50,853 bases of DNA from positions 1 through 50,853 of IMG/VR virus record IMGVR_UViG_3300037468_000175, one strand, 5' to 3'. The notes under the pieces are model-generated. The model made no database searches and had not been told where the DNA came from. It was given only the letters and a program-made list of their open reading frames with translations. The DNA is from a virus (taxonomy: Duplodnaviria; Caudoviricetes). Positions 40,526 to 48,443 of the stretch are shown here, one piece after another. The position numbers and the translations under genes were made by a program. Each line of letters begins with the position of its first letter. Position 1 is the stretch's first letter.

Positions 40526-41194
40526 ATGGCAGAAATCATCCAGATACCAGCACCAAACATTCAAATGATTGAGGTCGAGATTAAAGGGACTACTCCCTTA
40601 ATGTTCCACAAATGGTCGGAAAAGGCCAAGGCACAGATAAGGGATAAGCAACAGAAAAAGGCCAAGACCGGCAGACCCAAGAGAGAGCCGGAGGTCGAGT
40701 ACCTGAACTCGTTTTACTATACGCAAGACGGGTTCGTCTCTTTCCCCGCATTGGCGATTAAACAAGCAATTGTGGGGGCGGCTCGGTCAATTGATGGCTT
40801 ACAAATGACGATTATCCGGGGCAACATCTTCGTCGTAGGCGACGTTGATGGCCTGGTACCCGTCTTGGTTGACGGCAAGCCCGTCAAACCCAGTAAGAAG
40901 CTGACACCAGCTAACGGTACTCAAGGTGAAAACATTTTCGCGATTGATACGGCCAACACTAACTTGGTAATGATGGAACATATGGTCAGGGTTGCTCGAG
41001 GGGCAGCCGACCTGCGTTACCGAGGGGCGATTAAGTCTTGGTCAATGAACTTGATGGTCAAGTTTAACGCCGATATGTTCAGCCAAGAACAAGTCGTGAA
41101 TCTCATCCAAACCGCAGGTTTCTCTCAAGGACTCGGCGAATGGAGGCCGGAACGGAACGGCGACAGCGGAACATTTGAGGTCGTACAATCTTAA
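40526..41194 (+). CDS. RAMP/Cas7-like RNA-binding effector (Vipr-like)
   Basis: N-terminal strand IEVEIKGTTPLMFH; C-terminal Gly-rich loop AGFSQGLGEWRPERNGDSGTFEV; directly upstream of the pentamer array. Confidence 0.7.
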   Translation: MAEIIQIPAPNIQMIEVEIKGTTPLMFHKWSEKAKAQIRDKQQKKAKTGRPKREPEVEYLNSFYYTQDGFVSFPALAIKQAIVGAARSIDGLQMTIIRGNIFVVGDVDGLVPVLVDGKPVKPSKKLTPANGTQGENIFAIDTANTNLVMMEHMVRVARGAADLRYRGAIKSWSMNLMVKFNADMFSQEQVVNLIQTAGFSQGLGEWRPERNGDSGTFEVVQS

Positions 41195-41195
41195 A

Positions 41196-41226
41196 TGCCT
41201 GGGGCGCCTGCCCGCCCCACAAGGCA
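41196..41226 (+). promoter_or_regulatory. Leader hairpin of the guide array
   Basis: TGGGGCG-CCTGCC-CGCCCCA stem-loop, extendable by TGCCT/AGGCA. Confidence 0.6.
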
Positions 41227-42070
41227 GTCGTGGAATGGAGTTGTACGATTCGGAGAGGCGGGGGAGGATTGCCAGTAGTGGTTACGAGAGGCCCGGTGCG
41301 TTGTCTGGGGCTCGTTGGGGCGGTGAAATGGTTTGGCAGTAAAGGAATGTTATGTCGGGTACCGGACGTATTTGGTTGGTTTGATTAGGCAGTAGGGGAG
41401 AGTTTTGGTTGGTAAGGTTGGAACGTCTTGTTGAGGTATGGAGTGCCAGTAGAGGAGAGGCAATGTACGGCGGGGCGGGGAGATGAGTTGCTTAGTATGG
41501 CGAGTCACGGCGGGGCAGTCGGGGATGGGTGCGTGACGGAGTGTGTAGGTCGGGCAGTATAGGTGGGTCGAGGCATAATGGGGTTCGTGGCGGTAAGGTC
41601 GGTACGGCAGTCAAGGACCGGATAGGTGGGGTTCGGAAAGGCAATCCGAGTCGGGGTATGTTAGGGCAGTCGTGGCAGTTCACGTCGAGGCCGTATCAGG
41701 CGAAATAAGGTGAGGCGGGGCCAGTTTTGGCAGTAGGGGTAAGGCACGGCTTGGACATTAAGCGGTGGGGTGCCGAATGGCGAGGACTGGCAGTTAGGGA
41801 ACGGAGTGTTAAGGTGTTGTTCGCCTGGGCTGTAAAGGTGTGTATCGGTACTGCAAGGCACTGTTTGGCCGGGACGGGTTGGCCGAGGTCGGGCAGTTAT
41901 GGGGGGCACGGTTCTGGTAGGCAGGTCTAGGAAAGGCAGTCGGGGAGAGTATGGGAGGTATTGGGAACGTAATGGTGTGTTACCGCGAGGTGAGGCAAGG
42001 TTTCGCCAGGATGGAATGGTTGGGCAGTAATGGGTGGTACGGTTGGACAGGTTCGTCAATTTAAGGCAGG
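41223..42070 (+). ncRNA. Array of ~15 guide-like RNA units: GGCA/GCCA delimiter + 7-17 (GGY/GTY/NGY)-NN pentamers
   Basis: GGCAGT/GCCAGT at 41223, 41271, 41335, 41388, 41445, 41514, 41553, 41606, 41665, 41729, 41789, 41892, 41935, 42023 (GGCTGT at 41828, GGCAGG at 42065); strong 5-nt G periodicity; no credible ORF. Confidence 0.85.
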
Positions 42071-42132
42071 GCTTGGTTATGTACCTAGACTAGATTATGA
42101 ATATAATCAAATTAGGAAGGGAGGTGATTCAA

Positions 42133-42552
42133 ATGGATGAAGTAATCAATATCTTAAAAGCAATTGAACAACGTGATGGCGTTCTCCGACCGGAAGTGTT
42201 GGTGGACGAGGCGTCTCAGTCTTCCCATCCCTTACACGGGTACTTTGAATGGGAGGATACGGAAGCCGCCCGCAAGTGGCGCATACATCAAGCCAGGACT
42301 ATGATTATCAAGGTCAAGGTGAGAATAGCTGAAACCACGACCCAGGCATTTCACAACGTCAGGGTCGAGATAAACAAAGTCCCGGTGAGGGGCTATTTTT
42401 CTACCGAACGGGTCTTATCCGATAAGGATATGCTCGGCCAAGTCCTAGCCAGGGCGTTGGATGAATTGGAATACTGGCAGAAAAAATACGAGACTATCAA
42501 AGAATTGGCCGGTATTATCAACCACGATGTCCTCAGCCAAGTCAAAAAATGA
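42133..42552 (+). CDS. Conserved accessory protein of the array locus
   Basis: SD AAGGGAGGTGA; G.L.PE..VD.A....HPLH..FEW.D..AA..WR..QAR..I motif. Confidence 0.65.
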   Translation: MDEVINILKAIEQRDGVLRPEVLVDEASQSSHPLHGYFEWEDTEAARKWRIHQARTMIIKVKVRIAETTTQAFHNVRVEINKVPVRGYFSTERVLSDKDMLGQVLARALDELEYWQKKYETIKELAGIINHDVLSQVKK

Positions 42553-42866
42553 ACAAACTCCAACGGATTCTCTACCAAGTGGCGCACCGTGAATTGGGTG
42601 AATTGGAAGCCGAACGGCAGATTGAGGCGTTATATTCCAGTCAGTATTTGGAAGGAATTAGGGTGGGAATGAAACCGCCCAAAGAGTACGAGTGTTTATG
42701 CGCCAGGTGTGGCCACCTCTTGTTTCCGCAAGCCGATACAGATAAACTAAATGGCATAACCGCAACAAAGGGTACTTGTCAGCGGTGTGGGACTAAGGAC
42801 ACATTCTTAGTTCCGGTCAATGATTTTATGTATGCTAGCGGAGAAGGAGGCGGTGTATGGGATTAA
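42549..42866 (+). CDS. Zinc-ribbon protein
   Basis: CARCG...CQRCG. Confidence 0.55.
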   Translation: MNKLQRILYQVAHRELGELEAERQIEALYSSQYLEGIRVGMKPPKEYECLCARCGHLLFPQADTDKLNGITATKGTCQRCGTKDTFLVPVNDFMYASGEGGGVWD

Positions 42867-43606
42867 AGGAGTATCGGGATATAGAGTCGCTACACATTTG
42901 GGAAAAGAATCCCAGGACTATATCCCAAAAAGACTTTGGCCGTCTCAAGAAGCAACTGAAAAAGTTAGGGCAGTATAAGCCATTGGTCATTACCGAGGAT
43001 GGTACGGTTTTGGGCGGTAATATGCGCCTCAAGGCGTACCAAGAGATGGGAATTAAGGACATCTGGGTCTCGGTAGTCGAGGCCGATACGGAAGTTAAGA
43101 AAGTCGAGTACGCCTTATCGGATAATGACCGAGCCGGTACGTACATTGAAGATGATTTGTTGGCTTTGGTGAAGGATTTAGACCTGGACTTGGACTTATA
43201 CGCGGTAGACCTGGGAGAGATGTCTTCCTTATCAGATTTGTTCAAGGACCAAGAGGTGTTCGATGAGGACTACAGTGACAACCTCGGGGAGATAGTGTAC
43301 GAACCGAAGGAGACCCACCACAAAGTCTCGGATTTGTACCAACCGGACAATAAATACGACGCCGATATCGAGAGTCTGGAGAACGAGGAATTGAAACAGA
43401 TGCTTCGGGCCAGGGCGGCTAACTTCCATAACTTCAACTACGAAAAGATTGCCGATTATTATGCCTACCAGGCGACACCGGAGGAACAGCGGGTGTTTGA
43501 GAAACTGGCGTTGGTCCTCTTGGACCGGAATAAACTTATCGAGAATGGCTTTTCTAAACTCATAGACAAGATTGACCTGGGAGAGACAGAATATGAAGCT
43601 GAGTGA
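42857..43606 (+). CDS. ParB-like nuclease domain protein
   Basis: W.KNPR.I, L...G..KPLVI, GGNMRL.A, DN..AG. Confidence 0.8.
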   Translation: MGLKEYRDIESLHIWEKNPRTISQKDFGRLKKQLKKLGQYKPLVITEDGTVLGGNMRLKAYQEMGIKDIWVSVVEADTEVKKVEYALSDNDRAGTYIEDDLLALVKDLDLDLDLYAVDLGEMSSLSDLFKDQEVFDEDYSDNLGEIVYEPKETHHKVSDLYQPDNKYDADIESLENEELKQMLRARAANFHNFNYEKIADYYAYQATPEEQRVFEKLALVLLDRNKLIENGFSKLIDKIDLGETEYEAE

Positions 43607-44453
43607 AGCGTATGAGAAACTTAACACCATTTACATCATCTCCAAAGGCAGACCCAGGTGCCTGACGGCTCGGACACTAACCAGGATTGGCTACCCAGGC
43701 CAATGGTTTATTGTCTGCGGCAATAATGACAATACTATCGAGAAGTACCAACAGAATTGGGGTAAGGACAAGATACTGATATTTGATTGGTATGAGGAAG
43801 TGAAACATACGGATTTTATGGACAACCTGGGAGTTGAGAAGTATTCGTCTGGGGCGGCACCAGTCAGGAACGCCACGATGGAGATTAGCCGTCAGCGGGG
43901 AGAGATACGGCATTGGCAACTGGATGACGACTATCCGGCTTTCGTTAAGTTCAATACCAAACGAAAGAAGTATGACCGGGTTAGGGATGGGAGGGTACTC
44001 CAGTTTGAAATGGCGAAGATTGCCCTATTCGGCTATGAGGCCGACCTGACTAACGTGGGGTACCAACCCACCTCCAATACCTACCCCGACCAAGCATTTA
44101 ATTTCACCAAGCGGGTGTTCAACGCCCATAACCTACCAAGCGACCCGGATAAGTTTGTCCGGTGGCGTGCCCGAATGAATGACGATACGGTGAACGCTTT
44201 AGATGTATTGGTGGGCGGTGGTTATGAGATATCGGTCAATTATTTGGGAATGGGTACCATCAAAACACAGACAGAAACCGGGGGGAATACTGACCTGTAT
44301 AAGGACAACGGAACGGTTATGAAGACCGCCTATGCGGTTATGAGGTCGCCTAAATCCGTCTCTTTAGTGATTAAGTTCAAGCGTTACCACCACCAGAACA
44401 ATTGGGCTCCAGTTTCGCCCAAACTGATAAGAGACCATTATGCCCGATTATGA
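43593..44453 (+). CDS. TET/JBP-associated (GREB1-like) glycosyltransferase
   Basis: IYIISKGRP, GA...RN, HWQLDDD, W..R.N.D, Q...GGNTD.Y, RYHH..N. Confidence 0.7.
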   Translation: MKLSEAYEKLNTIYIISKGRPRCLTARTLTRIGYPGQWFIVCGNNDNTIEKYQQNWGKDKILIFDWYEEVKHTDFMDNLGVEKYSSGAAPVRNATMEISRQRGEIRHWQLDDDYPAFVKFNTKRKKYDRVRDGRVLQFEMAKIALFGYEADLTNVGYQPTSNTYPDQAFNFTKRVFNAHNLPSDPDKFVRWRARMNDDTVNALDVLVGGGYEISVNYLGMGTIKTQTETGGNTDLYKDNGTVMKTAYAVMRSPKSVSLVIKFKRYHHQNNWAPVSPKLIRDHYARL

Positions 44454-45540
44454 TTATCTTATTGTAGGTGCCGGACTTTTTGGTTCAACTTTTGCTTATC
44501 AAATGACTAAGCAGGGGAAGCGGTGTCTGGTGATTGACCAGCGGTCGCATACCGGAGGCAACTGCCACACCAGCAACCAGGATGGGATTATTGTCCACGA
44601 TTACGGAGCTCATATCTTCCATACCAGCAACCAACGGGTATGGGATTTTGTTAACCAATTCGGGGAGTTCAATCATTATATCAACCAACCTATCGCTATG
44701 GTGGAAGGTGTACCTTACAATATGCCGTTCAATATGAATATGTTTAGCCGGGTGTTCGGGGTGACCAAACCGAGTGAGGCATTCGATATTATCGAGGAGG
44801 AGACGAAGCCGTATCAAACCTTAGTACCGAAGTCATTGGAGGACCAAGCCCTCCAGATGGTCGGCAAAACCATTTTTGAAAAGTTCATCAGGGGATACAG
44901 CGAAAAGCAATGGGGTAGCCCCTGTTCCGACTTGCCGGCCAGTTTTATCAAGCGGTTGCCGTTGCGGTTCACTTACGATAATAATTATTATGACGATACT
45001 TACCAGGGCATACCAATAGACGGATACTCCGGCCTATTTGACCGGATGCTCAGGGGAATAGAGGTGGAGGTGAACGTCAAATACAATGAGGTAAAGAGCC
45101 ACATTGAGGCCAAGAAAACTATTTACACCGGAATGATTGACGAGTTCTTTGACTTCCAGTTCGGTTCACCGGAGTACCGGAGTCTGCATTTCGTTCACCT
45201 GTATAAGGATTGCTACAACTACCAAGGGTGTGCTGTGATTAACTACCCAGGTCTTGATGTGCCGTACACCCGCAGTATCGAGCATAAGCATTTCGCTTTG
45301 GACACCACCTCACCGACCACGATAGTCACGTATGAGTTCCCCGTACCTTACAAGGAAGGTCTTATCCCCTATTATCCGGTAGGCAATAGCCGAGATGTCA
45401 AGATTTATGACAAATATTTGACATTAGCTTCACAGATGTCAAATATAGTTTTTGCTGGTAGATTGGGAAGTTACCAGTACTACGATATGGATGACACGAT
45501 TGACCACGCCTTACAGTTAGCCGATAAGGAATTGCAATGA
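44440..45540 (+). CDS. glf: UDP-galactopyranose mutase
   Basis: YLIVGAGLFG, GGNC, H.YGAHIFHT, Y..KQWG, RLPLR..YDNNY..D.YQGIP, YTR.IEHKHF, PYYP, GRLG.YQYYDMD. Confidence 0.95.
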   Translation: MPDYDYLIVGAGLFGSTFAYQMTKQGKRCLVIDQRSHTGGNCHTSNQDGIIVHDYGAHIFHTSNQRVWDFVNQFGEFNHYINQPIAMVEGVPYNMPFNMNMFSRVFGVTKPSEAFDIIEEETKPYQTLVPKSLEDQALQMVGKTIFEKFIRGYSEKQWGSPCSDLPASFIKRLPLRFTYDNNYYDDTYQGIPIDGYSGLFDRMLRGIEVEVNVKYNEVKSHIEAKKTIYTGMIDEFFDFQFGSPEYRSLHFVHLYKDCYNYQGCAVINYPGLDVPYTRSIEHKHFALDTTSPTTIVTYEFPVPYKEGLIPYYPVGNSRDVKIYDKYLTLASQMSNIVFAGRLGSYQYYDMDDTIDHALQLADKELQ

Positions 45541-45989
45541 AACCCAAGAAACTCCCTACGGGTAGGCCACCCAAACTCAGTTTAGAGCCGGAGATAATGG
45601 ACAAGCTGGAGAGTGTTCTCCGTCTGGGGGTGTCAGACAAAATGGCTTGCGAGTATGCAAATGTCTCTAGGGATACGTATTATAAGTGGCTAAAAATTGA
45701 CAAATCTTTTTCCGACAGAATGATGACGGCCAAGAACTACGCCAGGATAGCGGCTGGACAGGTGGTCGTTCAGGCCATTGTGAAGGACAAGGACGTGGCC
45801 TCGGCCAGGTGGTGGTTAGAGAAGAAACACTCGGACGAGTTTAAGAGCAAGCCGGACTTTGTAACCGAGAACAAGACACAAATTAACTTCTTTAGCAACT
45901 ATGAGCAACTTGCCGAACAACTCTATCGCCTCTCTCGCCACGTTGTCCAAGGCGGACATCTTGAACCGAATCAAGACCTTAACAAGTGA
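45537..45989 (+). CDS. Terminase small subunit
   Basis: GRPPKL, AC..A.VSR.TYY.W, A..W.LE+....EF. Confidence 0.8.
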   Translation: MKPKKLPTGRPPKLSLEPEIMDKLESVLRLGVSDKMACEYANVSRDTYYKWLKIDKSFSDRMMTAKNYARIAAGQVVVQAIVKDKDVASARWWLEKKHSDEFKSKPDFVTENKTQINFFSNYEQLAEQLYRLSRHVVQGGHLEPNQDLNK

Positions 45990-46650
45990 CGAGTTAGAGA
46001 CATTCGCCTACCAGAGTGCCGTTGAGGAGGTACGGGTAGCGGCTAACGACCTCCATTATTACCTGGAGCATTTTGTAGTAACCCAGGATGAACACGATAA
46101 GGACCTTCCTTTTAAGGCACTCCCCTACCAGGAGAAGCCGTACCTCCACGAATTGGCCGACCTATTCTTGACCGAACCCTTGTTATTAGTCGAGAAATCA
46201 CGGCAGATGTTAGTGACTTGGATTATGATTGCCTGCCACCTCTGGGATGCTCAGTTCCACGAAGGGAGGCGTATATTCTTACAGTCCAAGAAAGAGTTAG
46301 ATGCCAACGCTTTGGTTGATAGAGCCAAGTTTATCTACCAGAACTACCCAGAACCGTACCGGACTATCATTCACGCCTCGTTCTCGGCCCGTGACCCGAT
46401 GGCTTACCTCCGGTTGGAGTTCCCCAAGCAAAAGTCTATTGTCCAGGGAACGCCCCAAGGGGCAGACGTACTCCGGCAATACACCGCTTCCCGTATCTTT
46501 TCAGACGAGATGGCCTTCCAAGACCGGGCAGAGGAGGCGTACATAGCCGCCCGACCCACTATTACCGGAGGCGGTTCGTTCATTGGGGTCAGTTCGCCTA
46601 ACTTTAAGAACTTCTTTTGGCGGTTAGTGAAGGACATTCACAGCCCATAA
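45901..46650 (+). CDS. Terminase large subunit, ATPase half
   Basis: EKSRQM..TW (Walker A variant), FSDEMAF (Walker B), VSSP coupling motif. Confidence 0.85.
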   Translation: MSNLPNNSIASLATLSKADILNRIKTLTSDELETFAYQSAVEEVRVAANDLHYYLEHFVVTQDEHDKDLPFKALPYQEKPYLHELADLFLTEPLLLVEKSRQMLVTWIMIACHLWDAQFHEGRRIFLQSKKELDANALVDRAKFIYQNYPEPYRTIIHASFSARDPMAYLRLEFPKQKSIVQGTPQGADVLRQYTASRIFSDEMAFQDRAEEAYIAARPTITGGGSFIGVSSPNFKNFFWRLVKDIHSP

Positions 46651-47406: not shown

Positions 47407-47550
47407 ATGCCAGTCAAAGTCTCAAAGGCCAAAGGCGGGTACCGAGTCAGCACGCCAGGTGGAGTTAAGGCCAAACACACGACCAAGAAAAAAGCTATGA
47501 AACAGAAACGCCTGCTTAACGCGATTGAACACGGATACAAACCAAAATGA
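47407..47550 (+). CDS. Small basic protein (47 aa, not in ORF track)
   Basis: MPVKVSK..GGYRV.TP..VKAK.TTKKKA.KQ.RLL.AIEH; SD GGGGGTGG; ATGA overlap. Confidence 0.6.
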   Translation: MPVKVSKAKGGYRVSTPGGVKAKHTTKKKAMKQKRLLNAIEHGYKPK

Positions 47551-48443
47551 TACTACCGGTAGTCCACAATAAGAACAATAACTTCACCGTAGTCAGGGTG
47601 CATTATTCGTCTGACCCTGAAAAGAACACTCCGGAATGGGTGGCTATGGCGAAACAGGGGATGCCGGAACTGGGGTGGAATCGGGAATATGAATTGGACT
47701 ACACCGTATTCGAAGGCAAGCCATTCTTTCCGGAGTTCAAAGAGTACAACATCGGCCAGTTTGAGTACTACCCCAGGGAGACTTTGTACCGAGGATGGGA
47801 CTACGGCTTCCACCGCCCTTGTTGTTTAGTAACCCGTATCAACCCCTTTGACCAGTGGTGTTGGTTAGAGGCCATCCTGGGTGAGGATGAGGGCATAATG
47901 GAGTTCGGGAAACGGGTGCAACGCTACTGTCACGCTACCTATCCGGGGGCTAAGTACGTTGATGTGGGCGACCCTGCCGGTGAACAAGTCTCGGACAAGA
48001 GTGAGAAAACCTCGGTCCAGATACTCCAGGCATTGGGGATATACGTCAGAAGCCGGAGGCAACCGATTAAGCAGGGGTCAGAGATTATCAGGCAGAAACT
48101 TATAATGCGTGCCGATGGCAAGGTGGGATTGTTAGTCCACGTCTCCCAGAGTTATGTGATTGACGGGTTTAAGGGGGGATTGCATTACCCCGAAACTAAG
48201 GAGGGGTTGTTTAAGAGCGAGTTTTACGAGAAGGACGGGTATTACGACCACGTCTTTGATGCAGGGCGGTACTTGGCTACCGACCTCTTTACCGTTATCG
48301 GCCAGCAAGAGATGCCTAACCAACTGACTAGCGACCCTAACCGCTACGATTACCGGATGGGTAGACCGGAAGAACCGCAACAAATAGTCGACTTATCTAC
48401 CGACTTGTTCAACGATACTACCGACTTAGGAGGCGGTTTCTAA
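47547..48443 (+). CDS. Terminase large subunit, nuclease half
   Basis: W.REYE, RGWDYGF..P, GDPAG, DH..DA.RY (RNase H fold). Confidence 0.85.
   Translation: MILPVVHNKNNNFTVVRVHYSSDPEKNTPEWVAMAKQGMPELGWNREYELDYTVFEGKPFFPEFKEYNIGQFEYYPRETLYRGWDYGFHRPCCLVTRINPFDQWCWLEAILGEDEGIMEFGKRVQRYCHATYPGAKYVDVGDPAGEQVSDKSEKTSVQILQALGIYVRSRRQPIKQGSEIIRQKLIMRADGKVGLLVHVSQSYVIDGFKGGLHYPETKEGLFKSEFYEKDGYYDHVFDAGRYLATDLFTVIGQQEMPNQLTSDPNRYDYRMGRPEEPQQIVDLSTDLFNDTTDLGGGF

Follow-up and report, generated by a model that had tools for sequence, protein, structure and literature searches.

The window analysed here, a stretch of 50,853 bases (47.8% G+C) that makes up a whole virus record, carries an RNA-guided phage VIPR system that is probably aimed in part at genes of the phage's own host. 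The targets of its guides point most strongly to Microgenomates (Patescibacteria), a group of ultra-small bacteria, as the source of this host. The locus has the minimal VIPR layout of a vipr gene, an accessory gene and a long intergenic RNA region (Table 1). A sequence-only reading of the same DNA had noted a likeness to VIPR and left its novelty to be checked against the literature; the VIPR system is indeed in print (10.64898/2026.04.26.720920), as are staggered arrays (2026 preprints), and what is new here is the predicted target class, together with a variant scaffold. Known VIPRs have been described as weapons between viruses, the natural targets on record in the accessible parts of the published texts being rival phages, satellites, prophages, vipr genes, vrRNAs, viral sequences and REP decoys (10.64898/2026.04.26.720920; 10.64898/2026.04.26.720927; 10.64898/2026.10.15.759431). 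Host surface or restriction genes are not reported as VIPR targets in these parts, a statement that data S3/S4, supplementary tables and subscription journals could alter. If the matches presented below hold, phages would turn VIPR on host restriction and surface structures, which would represent a new class of counter-defence with one guide per gene family.

Table 1. Features of the VIPR locus in the window and of two Vipr loci encoded by Microgenomates-class genomes
Feature	Position	Strand	Basis or predicted target
vipr gene, 222-aa RAMP-fold protein	40526..41194	+	Sequence match to SUSP1 Vipr; fold match to Cas7/Csm3/Cmr
Leader hairpin	41196..41225	+	Predicted fold; loop and unit head are reverse complements
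Staggered vrRNA array, 15 units, scaffold G-(G/T)-(not G) plus NN	41223..42069	+	Periodicity and parse
Unit 2	41271..41334	+	Predicted: motif I (DPACGSGG) of type I/IIG restriction methyltransferase genes, sense
Unit 5	41445..41513	+	Predicted: internal repeats of a secreted ~420-aa Microgenomates protein, sortase operon, sense
Unit 8	41606..41664	+	Probable glycosyltransferase genes, antisense, weak
Unit 9	41665..41728	+	Putative recombinase reading; no target match
Unit 10	41729..41788	+	Predicted: SipW-dependent TasA/camelysin-like genes, sense
Unit 12	41828..41891	+	Predicted: N-terminal MerR-type HTH of very long host ORFs, sense
Unit 14	41935..42022	+	Putative zinc-ribbon reading; no target match
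TATAAT box and ribosome-binding site ahead of the accessory gene	42102..42127	+	Kept in related phage L027; absent from promoter-scan calls
vap-like accessory gene, 139 aa	42133..42552	+	phrog_15946, E 1.3e-30
Host-encoded Vipr loci	L429/L431:9313-14300 (G121) and L430/L432:9792-12532 (G062)		Both genomes also carry the repeat-protein target

The vipr ORF has no Pfam family and 1,204 homologues. Its only significant match among solved structures is the Vipr of SUSP1 (PDB 36pp; E 5.8e-5, phmmer with the single sequence), and a profile of 102 sequences matched SUSP1 Vipr over nearly its full length (positions 17-194 of 198) with an E value of 1.8e-11. In both fold searches of the predicted model (pLDDT 92.9) the top matches were Cas7/Csm3/Cmr RAMPs (best Z 10.7, rmsd 3.8, 155 residues aligned); Vipr itself is absent from these matches because the fold libraries are older than the Vipr structures. 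According to the accessible part of its description, SUSP1 Vipr grips the scaffold bases by H17, R138, D177, W178 and R179 (10.64898/2026.04.26.720927). Counted by hand on the alignments, H17, R138 and D177-W178-R179 align with H28, R166 and E205-W206-R207 here, and R166 and R207 are invariant among the 102 homologues. Judged by its sequence, the product is Vipr, a RAMP protein. The RAMP/Cas7 fold proposed in the sequence-only reading is thus borne out by the fold searches and the likeness to VIPR by the profile match. The Cas7/Csm3 backbone of Class 1 CRISPR-Cas shares the RAMP fold, whereas the locus described here has no repeat-spacer array, no cas operon beside the RAMP gene and a non-contiguous code. 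Cas families were found neither among 7 neighbouring ORFs (Pfam) nor among 51 ORFs (PHROGs).

Autocorrelation of G along the intergenic tract peaked at lag 5 (z 6.0), as had been predicted, and also at lag 10 (z 6.9), both compared with dinucleotide shuffles. GGCAGT hexamers on the plus strand occur 34 times in the whole 50.9-kb window, and 13 of these fall inside the tract. The final parse covers 847 nt in 15 units of 7-17 steps each, in line with the ~850 nt, ~15 units and 7-17 steps estimated before; a first parse into 17 units was dropped, as three short pieces are one 64-nt unit. Unit heads are GGCAGT in twelve cases, GCCAGT in two and GGCTGT in one. The GGCA/GCCA opener suggested earlier therefore stands, but the boundary is really the hexamer G[GC]C[AT]GT and not GGCA alone. 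Five-base steps prevail (147, besides ten of four and two of six bases), and the unit lengths are 5n+4 (seven units), 5n+3 (five), 5n+2 (two) and 5n (one), so that twelve of 15 fall into the two classes (5n+3 or 5n+4) to which most had been assigned. At the six-base head the closing pentamer of one unit overlaps the opening pentamer of the next by one base, and the invariable stretch separating units is limited to these 6 bases, which, together with the lack of cas genes nearby, agrees with the earlier conclusion that this is not a CRISPR repeat-spacer array.

Among the 132 non-first pentamers, 54 start with GGY, 27 with GGA, 21 with GT[ACT] and 30 otherwise, and position 3 is a G in only five. 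The steps thus combine a constant trinucleotide with a variable NN, the trinucleotide following a consensus related to GGY, and such a related, non-GGY scaffold is allowed in the definition of VIPR (10.64898/2026.04.26.720920); non-canonical scaffolds have already been noted in the literature, as far as the accessible texts go (10.64898/2026.04.26.720920; 760802). With the VIPR systems of SUSP1 and P. fulva (type II), as described in the accessible parts of their reports (10.64898/2026.04.26.720920; 10.64898/2026.04.26.720927), the locus shares a phage RAMP homologue with a small accessory gene, pentamer guides and the wobble-position skip. In contrast to these, it has 15 head-to-tail guides, a scaffold of which GGY makes up only the 54 steps mentioned, an array that sits between vipr and vap, and predicted targets that include cellular genes. 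The strict GGY and the conserved structured 3' tail of VIPR type II (the SUSP1 clade) are not found, as the units abut without a tail. The share of GGA steps counts against the preferred reading of a VIPR system directed partly at host genes, since GGA was among the substitutions tested in SUSP1, where disturbing GGY abolished silencing (10.64898/2026.04.26.720920). A one-base overlap between unit end and next start also occurs in the published staggered vrRNA arrays (legend to fig. S18, 10.64898/2026.04.26.720920); here the head is GGCAGT, and the accessible text gives no targets for staggered arrays. A scaffold tolerating GGA, GTN and 4- or 6-base steps would broaden the design rules for VIPR tools.

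An assembly artefact is not at issue, because contigs of two sequencing runs (X2 and X3) cover the whole array without a break, although X2 may be the run from which the record derives; in other runs the array shows four single-position differences. One low-depth contig of run X4 is without 55 bases (11 pentamers) between two heads, suggesting that units can fuse in register. A search of Rfam returned no matches, and a promoter scan remained at chance level. The predicted leader hairpin in front of the array also occurs in the related phage L027 (8662-8688), and in both phages its loop corresponds to the unit head read as reverse complement; the folding energy is not significant (z -0.95 and -1.53). 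The loop could pair with the heads during processing. For the accessory gene, 42133 is the most likely start, behind a ribosome-binding site shared with L027, rather than 42097. No known domain, Pfam match or significant PDB match was obtained for the accessory protein.

Homologous vipr loci numbered 106, and the 51 that extend 1 kb or more to either side were used for neighbourhood counts. A pentamer array lies beside the vipr homologue at 47 of the 51, which supports the earlier interpretation, and the accessory family is found within 3 kb of vipr at 25. As to the heads of homologous arrays, GGCAGG is present in at least 3 copies in 64 of 81, and GGCAGT reaches 3 in 6 of 81. Homologues of vipr and the accessory gene also occur in 27 Mycobacterium and 5 Gordonia phage records (H31/H13, Saal and relatives), which represent culturable members of the clade. 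In mycobacteriophages such as Saal the accessory homologue adjoins vipr, and cluster-type mycobacteriophages are among the cultured phages with both genes. A further homologous locus (L006:3600-4700) has a GCA/GCC-rich pentamer scaffold on both sides of vipr.

In phage L027, Vipr is 82% identical to that of the window, the gene order is unchanged and the array has 21 units. The genes of the two phages align at 73-76%, whereas the array gave no blastn match. Four of 15 window guides of the first parse share 7-10 NN steps with an L027 guide, a level that none of 500 shuffles reached. Over the 41 paired steps, identity at positions 1-5 was 0.83, 0.51, 0.39, 0.85 and 0.88, with 0.74, 0.49, 0.32, 0.28 and 0.26 expected from composition; the NN identity is inflated because the pairs were picked for NN sharing, and the scaffold side alone is unbiased. 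L027 keeps the NN letters of four guides under changed scaffold letters, the scaffold identity being no more than composition would give. Another of its guides (8699) corresponds to the Toprim motif found in primase-helicases of phages; it matched at least 120 viral contigs and was in frame in 80 of 80 fetched, indicating that anti-phage guides are also present in this clade. The antisense reading of L027:8816-8863 resembles what we take to be a RadC/JAB motif.

According to the published target rule, NN pairs and one base is then skipped (10.64898/2026.04.26.720920). Eight guides were tested across Microgenomates-class genomes with reversed patterns as controls. Five of them (units 5, 12, 10, 2 and, weakly, 8), and thus five of the 15 units, match codon positions 1-2 of cellular genes, the reversed controls being zero. 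At the matched sites the skipped base is the wobble base, so that each guide would address a conserved protein motif, and these NN-plus-skip matches to real genes speak for the earlier model in which each protomer takes one pentamer and NN serves as address. Four of the five matched guides are sense to the mRNA and can therefore pair only with DNA. Except for unit 5, the best matches range from 20/22 to 22/24, in motifs conserved far beyond one host. In units 2 and 10 the codon series continues through irregular steps, and steps of 4 and 6 bases appear to be tolerated.

Unit 5 has no irregular step. The pattern that it has in common with its L027 partner was searched in viral contigs and a genome collection; it was found at 46 loci on 43 contigs of the collection, with 0.07 expected for uniform bases, and had no exact match in 2.9 million viral contigs. 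By hand count, 79 of 79 matches read in frame and in sense orientation, skip the wobble base and belong to one protein family, which consists of secreted acidic repeat proteins with named members from Patescibacteria. The full unit matches perfectly (26/26) in L128 and L136 and was found in 12 of 151 class genomes, with as many as 3 sites in a gene and a control of 0, a count in which G001, G003 and G005 are seeds and G072 is unpublished. The titles of the 46 loci, again counted by hand, name Patescibacteria or Microgenomates lineages in 27 cases, 'uncultured Gammaproteobacteria' or Pseudomonadales in 17 and Nanoarchaeia in one. Two of the 17 coincide with genomes drawn from the class of G001 (L110 = G137, L137 = G062), and because of this and of the named homologues in Patescibacteria these 17 titles were taken as unreliable. 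In all six of the 46 loci that were opened, the target gene heads a repeat-protein cluster with a sortase-like gene (sortase/CAP operon), confirmed by Pfam in 3 of 3 sent. Within the 12 commonest mismatch classes 138 of 186 mismatches could form G-U or G-T wobbles, the sites overlapping and thus not being independent. The repeat protein has no significant Pfam or NCBIfam family, and its predicted model reached a pLDDT of only 35.

For unit 2, the first parse gave matches in 0 of 201 genomes and 0 viral contigs. With one four-base step moved to where the L027 partner has it, the search returned 8 sites, spread over 7 of the 201 genomes, at up to 3 mismatches (control 0); the viral scan, having been run with the first parse, says nothing on the corrected one. 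All 8 sites lie in genes with the Pfam family N6_Mtase (N6-adenine methyltransferases) and 6 of 8 also with HsdM_N, mostly in operons with R and S subunits. Large serine recombinases occur near the methyltransferase operons in at least 3 of 7 regions, and the targets may hence be mobile islands. For unit 12, matches at 21/24 came from 4 of 251 genomes (control 0) and in every case fell within a MerR-type HTH at the N-terminus. Five hand-picked genomes gave none, and the 2.9 million viral contigs contained no exact match. Three of the four target ORFs of unit 12 lie beside the ATP synthase operon. The one at L226:5931-20000 comprises at least 4,690 codons, with the MerR-type HTH at its start and no other Pfam family, and is divergent from the ATP synthase operon.

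Unit 10 matched in 2 of 121 genomes (control 0; best 20/22), in genes that belong to PF12389 and TIGR04088 and adjoin a SipW-like peptidase; a reading of this unit as an SNF2 motif was given up for the TasA-like one. In the same TasA-like genes a second motif is matched by the L027 guide 9618, whose sequence is unrelated, at 21-24 of 26 in 6 gene copies from 3 genomes, all of them fetched for other guides. The best score of this guide was 24/26 with a skip of one base, compared with 19 without a skip and 20 with a skip of two. TasA homologues in Patescibacteria are on record (PMC9245690, accessible in part). Unit 8 matched in 4 of 151 genomes (control 0), at best 20/22 in a GT5/GT1 protein. 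The other three matches are in membrane proteins without Pfam match that we take to be glycosyltransferase-like, which weakly suggests glycosyltransferase genes as the target.

The class-wide tests of units 7, 9 and 14 were negative. Unit 7, which presumably reads like a Walker A motif, was rejected with 5 matches compared with 6 in the control and none in viral contigs. Unit 9 resembles, as we assume, the catalytic motif of serine recombinases and unit 14 the zinc ribbon of recombinases; both matched in 0 of 151 genomes, with best local matches of 18/24 and 24/34, respectively, at null level. Units 1, 3, 4, 6, 11, 13 and 15 had no credible match in a scan of 3.0 Mb of host-class DNA. A reading of unit 1 as a Toprim guide reached at best 15/16 with one step left out and was not accepted. 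Targets were found neither above the shuffled level in the phage itself nor above chance in the 106 vipr loci. The idea that guides are copied from the DNA they target, scaffold base 3 then being the same as the skipped base, was not supported (0.38, with 0.32 expected).

The matches could also be explained by conflict between mobile elements, the true targets being gene copies on satellites, prophages and integrative defence islands and the chromosomal matches by-products of motif conservation. The recombinase-like readings of units 9 and 14, the serine recombinases close to the methyltransferase operons and the Toprim guide of L027 are in accordance with such a role. So are the published natural targets, which in the accessible texts comprise satellites and prophages (10.64898/2026.04.26.720920; 10.64898/2026.10.15.759431). 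However, the patterns of units 5 and 12 are missing from the viral contigs, their target genes reside in conserved housekeeping contexts, and the perfect matches of unit 5 are in two cellular genomes, and we therefore consider this explanation unlikely. Less probable still is that host DNA is bound but its genes are not repressed, the guides being decoys, chromosome tethers or leftovers of acquisition from host DNA. A decoy would blunt the phage's own Vipr, single-copy methyltransferase and MerR targets would be poor sinks, and two phages arrive at the same functional class and, within a single gene family, at two sites. This has to be set against the satellite vrRNAs that act as decoys on multicopy host REP elements (10.64898/2026.10.15.759431, accessible in part), and against the repeated sites in the unit 5 target. 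A degenerate repeat without guide function, with matches by chance or over-reading of motifs, would accommodate the parsing freedom at 12 of 159 steps and the 10 of 15 units without confirmed target, but is already largely refuted by unit 5, whose regular steps led to 46 loci in one family, and is further contradicted by the zero counts of the reversed controls for units 12, 2, 10, 8 and 5. We regard it as very improbable.

Under the preferred reading, a VIPR system directed partly at host genes, Vipr protomers would coat each array unit, one per pentamer, burying the three scaffold bases, while the exposed NN bases would pair with DNA and every third target base would be skipped, as homology to SUSP1 suggests. 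The array would probably be cut into unit RNAs at the one-base-overlap heads. Bound filaments would block transcription without cutting, probably strengthened by the accessory protein in analogy to SUSP1 vap1. For SUSP1, the accessible texts describe a filament on RNA, a triplex, repression on either strand and help by vap1 (10.64898/2026.04.26.720920; 10.64898/2026.04.26.720927). One set of guides would be directed at cell-surface genes, namely those for the repeat protein, the TasA-like fibres, the giant MerR-HTH protein and probably glycosyltransferases, and their repression would most plausibly lead to loss of phage receptors or traps. Another set would act on type I restriction operons as counter-defence, where repression of the methyltransferase gene would be useful only if the co-transcribed restriction subunits also fall. 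Other guides would probably be aimed at primase and recombinases of rival elements, in the manner of known VIPRs. We thus infer repression of host genes and a benefit to the phage from lost receptors or fibres and lost restriction. The chances appear evenly balanced that the multiplexed, codon-aware RNA code constitutes a programmable regulon over an episymbiotic Microgenomates host, by which several classes of surface-fibre or adhesin genes and whole families of restriction operons would be repressed at once through conserved protein motifs. If so, RNA-guided counter-defence would be combined with surface remodelling, and VIPR arrays would provide a readout of phage hosts and of infection-relevant unannotated host genes in uncultured lineages.

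Guides at codon positions 1-2 of conserved motifs, including that of recombinase, are likewise known from the anti-satellite VIPR of SUSP1 and from satellite solo vrRNAs, some of which bind host DNA (10.64898/2026.10.15.759431). In the accessible part of that report the host sites are non-coding REP decoys and the satellite is without Vipr, whereas here a Vipr-encoding phage matches protein-coding surface and restriction genes of the host. The nuclease-dead TIGR-Tas repressors of Patescibacteria, described from the same group of bacteria, are likewise guided by RNA and repress without cleaving (10.64898/2026.09.09.750476, accessible in part). Decoding of the array gives an orphan phage a probable host class and flags unannotated Patescibacteria genes as phage-relevant, namely those for the sortase-operon repeat protein, the TasA-like fibres and the giant MerR-HTH protein. 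Independently of the guides, a search with the capsid found no match and no prophage relatives in 116 genomes, and another phage protein gave one weak match (E 2e-4) in one of the 116. Two of 231 Microgenomates-class genomes encode a distant Vipr of their own, with hairpin-separated guide units and a DEAD/Helicase_C_2 gene (Table 1); the guides of one such array (L431) showed no match to the phage.

The record is a tailed-phage contig, with major head, terminase, tail and DnaB families among the 44 ORFs scanned. The VIPR locus is flanked by small early-type ORFs on one side and by a ParB/glycosylation/terminase block on the other. Families of the terminase large subunit are split over two ORFs (45901-46650 and 47547-48443) with small genes in between. 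Just downstream of the locus (42857-45540) lie ParB-like, glucosyltransferase-like and flavoprotein (phrog_9677) genes, the flavoprotein presumably being mutase-like, and this gene set is possibly a DNA or virion glycosylation module.
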